Translations under genes and position numbers: made by a program
In this document: positions 47,495 to 48,319 of the stretch, piece after piece
Layout: each line of letters opens with the position of its first letter
How positions within the stretch are numbered: position 1 is the stretch's first letter
The notes under the pieces: generated by a model
What the model was told of the DNA's origin: nothing
What the model saw: the letters and a program-made list of their open reading frames with translations, nothing else
Databases searched by the model: none
IMG/VR virus record: IMGVR_UViG_3300045988_183322
Strand: one strand, 5' to 3'
DNA length: 64,000 bases
Source: a virus

Positions 47495-48319
47495 CTATGA
47501 TTCTGGACAGAATTGATTTTTTGAGAAACGGAAATTCTTGAGTTCGACAAGAGAAAGTACTCTGTCATTATTGAATGACATCGCAAAAAAGTTAGCCCAC
47601 CACGAAAAAGAGGAGAGAGAAGAAATAAAATATCTATATTCTTGCATCTTTTTGAATGTCGTTAAATCATCTTCATGAACGAAATTGATTCTTATTTCTT
47701 TCATTGATGGTTCTGATGCCAAACTCTCTTCTATTCGTATCTTTGCTTTTTCCGGCTCTTCCGTGAAACAATCAATTTCATGTGATGCTCCTCGTTCAAT
47801 CATTCCCTTTATTGCATTAAGAATATAATTGTTGGATATAATTAATTCTGGCAGATAGTAAGTATAATCCCCCAACCTAAAATGGAACCCAATTCTCTCA
47901 TCTCTAATTTCGTTAGAGATGAAAGGATGAAATAAACTAAACAAGTCTTCTTTGTATTTGTAGAAATAGTTCCATTCATTTATCAATCCTCCAAGTAATA
48001 ATGGTTTATCTGAAAATCCATCTTTTCTTAAGAATCGAATTATTGGAAAGAAATTGTTATAATCATAATTCAAATAATATTTATCATCAGAAAGATATTG
48101 ATATCTGAAATTCTCATACATTATTTGATTGATAATAGCATCGTGAGATTTACTATGAGTAGGCCCCATTACTCGCTTATCAAAAAAAAGAGGTCTTCCA
48201 ACCTCTTTTGCTATAATATAACCAATGGTTATTTGAGATAACTGATTACCAAGTCCCCCATGAATTAAGGAATAAACTCCTTTCTTTCTTTCTTTCTTTC
48301 TTTCTTTCTTATTCATCAT
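47495..48319 (-). CDS. glycosyltransferase family 11 alpha-1,2-fucosyltransferase
   Basis: IHGGLGNQLSQITIGY matches the GT11 hallmark GGLGNQMFQYA. N-terminal KKERKKERKK is encoded by an (AAAG)n tract. Confidence 0.75.
   Translation of the reverse strand: MMNKKERKKERKKGVYSLIHGGLGNQLSQITIGYIIAKEVGRPLFFDKRVMGPTHSKSHDAIINQIMYENFRYQYLSDDKYYLNYDYNNFFPIIRFLRKDGFSDKPLLLGGLINEWNYFYKYKEDLFSLFHPFISNEIRDERIGFHFRLGDYTYYLPELIISNNYILNAIKGMIERGASHEIDCFTEEPEKAKIRIEESLASEPSMKEIRINFVHEDDLTTFKKMQEYRYFISSLSSFSWWANFFAMSFNNDRVLSLVELKNFRFSKNQFCPES
48281..48311 (-). repeat. tetranucleotide repeat (AAAG)7 on the coding strand, inside the 5' end of the fucosyltransferase ORF
   Basis: + strand ctttctttctttctttctttctttctttctt beginning 9 codons after the ATG. 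Confidence 0.85.

Follow-up and report, generated by a model that had tools for sequence, protein, structure and literature searches.

A tetranucleotide repeat tract as a probable phase-variation switch on a fucosyltransferase-type gene of an uncultivated human-gut phage

Does a short repeat in the first codons of a phage-borne glycosyltransferase gene act as a genetic switch? The window analyzed here, a 64,000-nucleotide (nt) stretch of IMG/VR virus record IMGVR_UViG_3300045988_183322, carries on its minus strand a 274-amino acid open reading frame (ORF; 47495–48319) that opens with ATGATGAAT and continues into a perfect AAG(AAAG)7 tract. An earlier note, made from the letters of the DNA alone, proposed the repeat as a candidate for slipped-strand phase variation. 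The proposal is supported by related loci that hold between 3 and 12 AAAG units (n) in otherwise identical flanks. We assign a probability of about 0.82 to the locus being a contingency (phase-variable) locus of a roughly 145-kb uncultivated human-gut phage, and with nearly equal confidence the tract is considered a hypermutable frame switch on a fucosyltransferase-type gene.

Tandem Repeats Finder placed the tract at 48280–48310 (minus strand) with a period of 4, 7.8 copies, 100% matches, and a score of 62, which is the maximum in the window. The 5′ end of the coding strand is ATG ATG AAT AAG (AAAG)7 GGA GTT TAT TCC TTA ATT CAT GGG GGA CTT GGT AAT CAG. The repeat encodes KKERKKERKK (residues 4–13), and the GGLGNQ motif of the enzyme starts at residue 21, 7 codons past the tract. 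The perfect tetranucleotide repeat and its peptide had been read correctly in the earlier note, which set the tract one base off (48281–48311) and GGLGNQ 5 codons downstream. A 28-mer of the tract was found in none of 100 dinucleotide-preserving shuffles of the window, with two mismatches allowed. The tract has the form expected of a contingency locus: a perfect simple-sequence repeat, inside an ORF, with a unit that is not a multiple of three.

The start region (ATG ATG AAT, 48311–48319, minus strand) is identical in all cluster 1 and cluster 2 loci. Both of its ATGs are in frame, and neither of the other frames has an ATG; with this single start frame, a two-state ON/OFF switch is expected. 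The window allele (n = 7) is in the ON register. The TAG stop of an upstream ORF (48322–48639, minus strand) lies 2 nt 5′ of the ATG of the glycosyltransferase gene, and the junction, TTCATGAAGTAGGTATGATG, is the same in cluster 1 and cluster 2 loci. This tight 2-nt spacing suggests that the two genes are co-transcribed.

A change of one or two units cuts the computed product to 12–34 residues (n = 6 gives MMNKKERKKERKEFIP), in line with the earlier expectation of a frameshift and truncation after about 15 codons. There is no in-frame ATG, GTG, or TTG between the tract and GGLGNQ. The DNA of the cluster places the fallback start for gene callers in OFF alleles at the Met51 codon (48167–48169, minus strand), which gives 224-residue products. 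The AlphaFold2 model has β1, α1 (which carries GGLGNQ), and β2 of the N-terminal domain all before residue 51, and a product re-initiated at Met51 is predicted to be inactive because the first β-α-β unit and GGLGNQ precede it.

Related loci were gathered from the 269- and 224-residue members of the window protein's 90%-identity cluster, a sister cluster, and pattern matches, and their DNA was retrieved. Members of the window protein's cluster are 274, 273, 269, 224, and 102 residues long. Two IMG/VR contigs carry the locus, and an exact protein-pattern search found it on ENA/JGI contigs as well. In all loci, the sequence is ...TTCATGAAGTAGGT ATGATGAATAAG (AAAG)n, after which each locus has either of two allelic continuations. 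Across 38 related loci from independent metagenome assemblies, all with identical flanks, n was 3 (1 locus), 4 (9), 5 (8), 6 (12), 7 (3), 8 (2), 9 (2), or 12 (1). The only in-frame values observed were 4 (269/270 residues) and 7 (273/274 residues), and both out-of-frame registers were present. An invariant repeat number, or variants that all preserve the frame, had been named beforehand as outcomes that would speak against phase variation, and neither was encountered.

The DNA of the 224-residue cluster members (P0027, P0028, P0039) has n = 3, 5, 6, 8, 9, or 12, and these “proteins” result from gene callers starting at Met51 where the allele is out of frame. Contig counts for the 90% clusters give about 75 ON (269–274 residues) and about 44 OFF (224 or 248 residues). 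A stable essential gene should be OFF in 0% of contigs and a gene in a random frame in 67%; the 37% found here is intermediate. One 173-kb record, IMGVR_UViG_3300045988_183135 (L062/L063), contains the locus twice, inverted, at both ends with n = 6 in both copies. This doubling is probably an assembly artifact, such as an inverted terminal duplication, and the 173-kb length should not be taken as a guide to phage genome size.

Many pairs of loci have no single-nucleotide polymorphisms over about 2,340 bp of flank, yet differ in n (for example, 4, 5, and 6, or 5 versus 9). Among loci grouped into ten haplotypes by exact identity over 1,090 bp, tract length has changed at least 10 times within haplotypes; the haplotype of the window itself was found with n = 5, 7, 8, and 9. 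Tract length evolves much faster than point substitutions accrue in genomes that otherwise match exactly, the behavior expected of a contingency locus. The tract is also the sole multi-state indel site (more than two lengths) in 151 kb of aligned relatives, with six states in 27 loci; other indels in this alignment are lineage-fixed or singleton homopolymer changes. A second switch was sought in the next-best tetranucleotide repeat of the window, (TCAA)5 in a CysD-like gene (41529–41548, plus strand). This negative control showed no variation in the 5 loci that cover it, one of which is diverged. Homopolymers at 55877 (a C6/T7 junction just 5′ of a GP88-family gene that starts at 55887) and 56631 (an A7 run just past the end of that gene) differ by 1–2 bases between the window and 3–4 related loci, and these intergenic runs may be minor sites of slippage.

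In more distant relatives, the equivalent position takes several forms. L005 has no repeat, L004 has (AAGG)3, L003 has (AAAG)3 followed by AAAT, and L002 has an interrupted tract. L040 carries (AAAG)8 behind a wholly different 5′ context with a consensus TTGACT-17-TATAAT promoter. L007 encodes a divergent homologue (72% identity in the C-terminal half) with an out-of-frame (AAAG)3 (L007 700–760) and, ahead of it, two ATGs that lie in separate frames, neither of them the enzyme frame. Gain of one unit would engage one of these ATGs and loss of one unit the other, a layout that resembles the multi-ATG arrangement of Haemophilus influenzae lic1. AAAG tracts occupy this site in the diverged lineages L040, L003, and L007, and the relatives together show it in different stages.

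L002 (5380–6010) and L040 (411–560) represent one lineage with the gene order reversed and the methyltransferase upstream. Homology between this lineage and that of the window breaks off precisely at the repeat tract. The ATG of the glycosyltransferase gene is only 4 nt after the perfect TTGACT-17-TATAAT promoter in this lineage, and the mRNA may be leaderless. The L002 methyltransferase gene has a TGG-to-TAG stop.

An unstable tract need not be a selected switch, and the explanation that survives best beside a contingency locus, although an unlikely one, is that the gene is a dispensable accessory whose OFF alleles are a neutral or mildly harmful load drifting or hitch-hiking to fixation. The assemblies provide consensus states only and no direct reversion event. 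The N terminus is purine-rich and K/R/E-rich in all relatives, so the tract could arise through chance expansion, and the neighboring methyltransferase also has sporadic homopolymer frameshifts (5 of 29 loci). The condition of the OFF alleles argues otherwise. When n was set to 7, the full 274-residue ORF was restored in 29 of 29 cluster 1 loci tested, including 18 of 18 that were out of frame, and none of these 18 OFF alleles had a second lesion. The ratio of nonsynonymous to synonymous substitution rates (dN/dS) between lineages is 0.07–0.19, indicating purifying selection that maintains the enzyme. With intact ORFs and this dN/dS, OFF alleles appear as recent states of a selectively kept gene rather than decaying pseudogenes. 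ON alleles occur at about twice the frequency predicted for a random frame, and the tract persists and expands in several lineages, including past a recombination junction that gives it a new promoter context. Unselected decay also fits poorly with identical haplotypes in which n takes the values 4, 5, and 6, or 5, 7, 8, and 9, because these need repeated length changes in both directions.

The GT11 assignment made earlier is supported by motifs and fold, with the gene product best described as GT11-like. The protein has the signature motifs of the family, namely the N-terminal GGLGNQ, HxRxGDY, and the C-terminal S(S/T)FSWW (SSFSWW here), and shares them with homologues that match Pfam PF01531. 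All distant homologues (P0007–P0023) contain PF01531. Residues G21, G22, G24, N25, Q26, H146, R148, D151, Y152, and S236–W240 are invariant in 21 sequences. The AlphaFold2 model is confident, with a predicted local distance difference test score of 90.3, and has the GT-B-type fold of the GDP-fucose transferase superfamily. A sequence-profile search of the PDB returned only a weak match to FUT8 (E 0.075). Comparison with the T-even agt/bgt-type DNA glucosyltransferases gave poor matches and no relation in fold or sequence. A restriction endonuclease was considered, as the gene adjoins a methyltransferase, and was ruled out by the motifs and the fold. These features support a GT11-like, GDP-fucose-type fucosyltransferase, with a putative GDP-fucose donor, α-1,2 linkage, and acceptor.

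The proposed mechanism starts with slipped-strand mispairing at replication, which would add or remove AAAG units in codons 4–13. With n = 4 or 7 (or 10), both ATGs would be in the enzyme frame and the gene would be ON. With any other n, translation would end after 12–34 codons, the sole downstream start would be Met51, which excludes GGLGNQ, and the gene would be OFF. Phage populations would then carry a heritable mix of fucosylating and non-fucosylating genotypes, presumably reversible within a population, with fucose the probable sugar. The target would most likely be a host surface polysaccharide (lipopolysaccharide or capsule), modified during lysogeny or infection. This target is favored because bacterial GT11 enzymes build O-antigens and capsules and because some of the phage genes hint at a temperate lifestyle. 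Alternatively, the enzyme could glycosylate the virion or DNA.

The same switch could act on an enzyme that glycosylates phage DNA, as T2 agt does, such that toggling would let the phage escape one restriction type at the cost of becoming sensitive to another. The gene does lie in an accessory/anti-defense region between D12 (46265–47383) and MT-A70 (53445–54062) methyltransferase genes, and a dNMP-kinase-like gene is present at 278–862. T2 agt is itself a phage glycosyltransferase with a proven contingency repeat (10.1101/2025.10.21.683753). The predicted enzyme has a fucosyltransferase fold and the DNA glucosyltransferases of T-even phages are poor matches to it, and we regard a DNA target as distinctly improbable.

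Artifacts of assembling or sequencing a low-complexity tract are a very improbable source of the length differences, even though De Bruijn assembly can shorten a tandem repeat that exceeds k and all n ≥ 8 come from ENA assemblies, because tracts with n ≤ 7 are at most 31 nt and below read length, larger n come from large-k ENA assemblies, the same n recurs over many independent samples and assemblers (MEGAHIT k141, SPAdes, Logan), cluster members of 269, 273, and 224 residues are each found on 8–48 contigs, and the (TCAA)5 control never varies. For the Logan assemblies, which we take to use a short k (k = 31), a tract of n ≤ 6 (at most 27 nt) and both flanks fit inside a single 31-mer, so these lengths cannot be produced by k-mer collapse.

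Several points weigh against a phase-variable fucosyltransferase locus. The Pfam GT11 match (PF01531) is marginal and partial, with 24.5 bits against a gathering score of 23.9 over residues 140–247, and searches of NCBIfam, PHROGs, and PADLOC gave no match for the glycosyltransferase protein. The tally of n over the 38 loci is biased toward OFF, as members were hand-picked for look-up, and the contig counts are less biased. Some ENA and Logan entries may derive from the same raw runs, and assemblies yield a single consensus n per sample. Tracts of n = 4–7 are short beside classical Haemophilus tracts, and the switching rate may be modest because the tract is short.

A terminator-like hairpin with a 10-bp stem, a GGAA loop, and a U8 run lies inside the glycosyltransferase ORF (48178–48209, minus strand), about 70 nt past the tract. 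The consensus scan that identified it found 2 such elements against 1.6 expected, which is not significant alone. The hairpin is part of the minimum-free-energy fold and is kept in five lineages with two compensated pairs; it is lost in L005 and L007, the two most distant. Hypothetically, it could let a translational OFF state reduce transcription of the methyltransferase gene downstream (polarity). Because the same nucleotides encode the conserved KEVGRPLFFD, constraint on the protein may be enough to explain the hairpin. A joint scheme is a tentative and rather unlikely extension of the contingency locus: ON alleles would fucosylate a host or virion glycan, possibly together with the sulfation module described below, and in OFF alleles ribosomes would halt ahead of the hairpin-U8, which would then terminate transcription and also silence the D12 methyltransferase. 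Were this true, one virus-encoded tetranucleotide tract in the human gut would couple phase variation in glycans to epigenetic phase variation.

The window is phage DNA, with genes for a 2,561-residue tape-measure protein (12564–20249) and a large terminase (32778–35990). Near-identical sequence is found on many independent metagenome contigs of 141–147 kb, at least one from a source labeled human gut metagenome, and the phage genome is likely to be roughly 145 kb. Neither DNA nor protein searches matched GenBank phages, and the phage thus has no annotated relative among them. A tRNA gene search found none.

The D12-class N6-adenine DNA methyltransferase gene (46265–47383, minus strand; Pfam PF02086, E 1e-21; PADLOC MTase_II, E 1e-120) begins 111 nt 3′ of the glycosyltransferase gene. 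It is a facultative neighbor and is absent from this position in cluster 2 genomes. Differing single-base homopolymer indels (A4–A6 and T6 runs) occur in this gene in 5 of 29 loci (L001, L010, L016, L025, L026), each seen once and each splitting or shortening the ORF. Upstream of the glycosyltransferase gene are the MT-A70 methyltransferase, a CI-like repressor, and a PLD-like protein. A 3.4-kb cassette (48654–52082) comprises an Abi_alpha-like gene (48686–49417), a 327-residue ORF, a PLD-like 175-residue ORF with weak DrmC/Mko matches, and part of the CI-like repressor gene. In contig L065, whose two sides show 99.99% and 99.3% identity, the cassette is swapped for a different 1.8-kb gene set. 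The 48654–52082 interval is an accessory-gene hotspot directly upstream of the putative switch operon.

A complete sulfate-activation/transfer module (40513–43172, plus strand) consists of genes for a Sulfotransfer_2 protein (40513–41175), a CysD-like PAPS_reduct-fold protein (41195–42007), a CysN-like GTPase (41971–42711), and an APS kinase (42708–43172). The module is conserved in L007, L035, L038, L039, and L065. Its position only 5 kb from the fucosyltransferase gene suggests phage-directed glycan fucosylation and sulfation.

A KilA-N domain protein (2926–3861, minus strand) has a C-terminal match to the prophage-encoded abortive-infection defense BstA (PADLOC, E 6e-19). The CI-like, KilA-N/BstA-like, and Abi_alpha-like genes are hints of a temperate lifestyle, and no integrase was noticed among the window ORFs scanned. 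An IS1595-family transposase gene and an outer-membrane β-barrel gene (3868–6565, minus strand) form a 40%-GC island in a 33%-GC phage, and the island is at a different position in a related contig (L036, 3333–5032). The transposase is 98% identical in amino acids and 94% in nucleotides to a copy in a gut metagenome-assembled genome labeled Akkermansia sp., which lies on a 306-kb contig with a local GC content of 37%; the next matches are from Alphaproteobacteria at 66%. The transposase match is suggestive only, but may point to a low-GC diderm host.

In bacteria, contingency loci are a classic means of bet-hedging; in phages, they have been demonstrated only recently, and only for homopolymer runs in cultured isolates. 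The principle is known, and a tetranucleotide switch in a gut phage is a new form of it. Here the switch is found in a widespread uncultivated human-gut phage, with ON and OFF alleles each dominant in samples from different people. The pattern is evidence from natural populations for gut phages that toggle an auxiliary gene of predicted glycan-modifying activity, and offers a way to ask what selects for or against phage-directed fucosylation in the gut. It also holds a warning for annotation: the 224-residue “short” versions are OFF alleles and not a separate protein.

Among known systems, the gtrABC O-antigen glucosylation operons of Salmonella and P22-like phages are phase-variable through a Dam/OxyR epigenetic switch. 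They share with the present locus a phage-borne glycan-modifying function with stochastic expression. The gtrABC switch differs in being epigenetic and promoter-level and in controlling a GT2 enzyme (GtrB) with a flippase and GtrC, whereas no GtrA flippase, GtrB (GT2), or GtrC domains were present among the neighboring ORFs scanned. Helicobacter pylori futA, futB, and futC vary through poly-C and related slippage in fucosyltransferase genes. As proposed here, slipped-strand mispairing switches a fucosyltransferase (GT11 or GT10), but the H. pylori tracts are homopolymers in chromosomal genes, and the target is the Lewis-antigen O-chain.

The lipooligosaccharide glycosyltransferase genes lic2A, lgtC, and lex2A of H. 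influenzae and Neisseria undergo tetranucleotide-repeat phase variation (PMC2651432). The arrangement is alike: a perfect 4-nt repeat lies in the first codons of a glycosyltransferase gene, a change of one unit shifts the frame, and ON and OFF alleles occur in otherwise identical strains or genomes. Those genes are on bacterial chromosomes and often have 10–40 units, whereas the present tract has 3–12 AAAG units, a single start frame, and a phage carrier whose host is an uncultivated gut bacterium. No phage with a tetranucleotide contingency locus, and no phage fucosyltransferase switched by a repeat, turned up in a literature search of incomplete coverage.

In the passages searched, Gao et al. 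2025 (PMC12748750) report that human-gut prophages encode futC-like α-1,2-fucosyltransferases, one of which made 2′-fucosyllactose. Those enzymes resemble the present one in being GT11-type and carried by human-gut phages, a likeness by description rather than by sequence alignment. The enzyme tested came from a prophage in a Ruminococcus metagenome-assembled genome, and those passages do not mention a repeat switch. The closest phage precedents for the switch are the polyG contingency tracts in receptor-binding genes of Campylobacter Fletchervirus, (Sorensen 2021, cited in PMC12823448), and the polyA contingency tracts in T2/T4 agt, which encodes a DNA glucosyltransferase, and rIIA (10.1101/2025.10.21.683753). 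Those loci have mononucleotide runs studied by experiments in cultured phages, whereas the present locus has a tetranucleotide array known from population genomics only, and the switched gene encodes a fucosyltransferase-fold enzyme rather than a DNA glucosyltransferase or a tail protein. The likeness is that a hypermutable repeat within an ORF of the phage would generate ON and OFF progeny as a means of bet-hedging, and T2 agt, like the present gene, encodes a glycosyltransferase.
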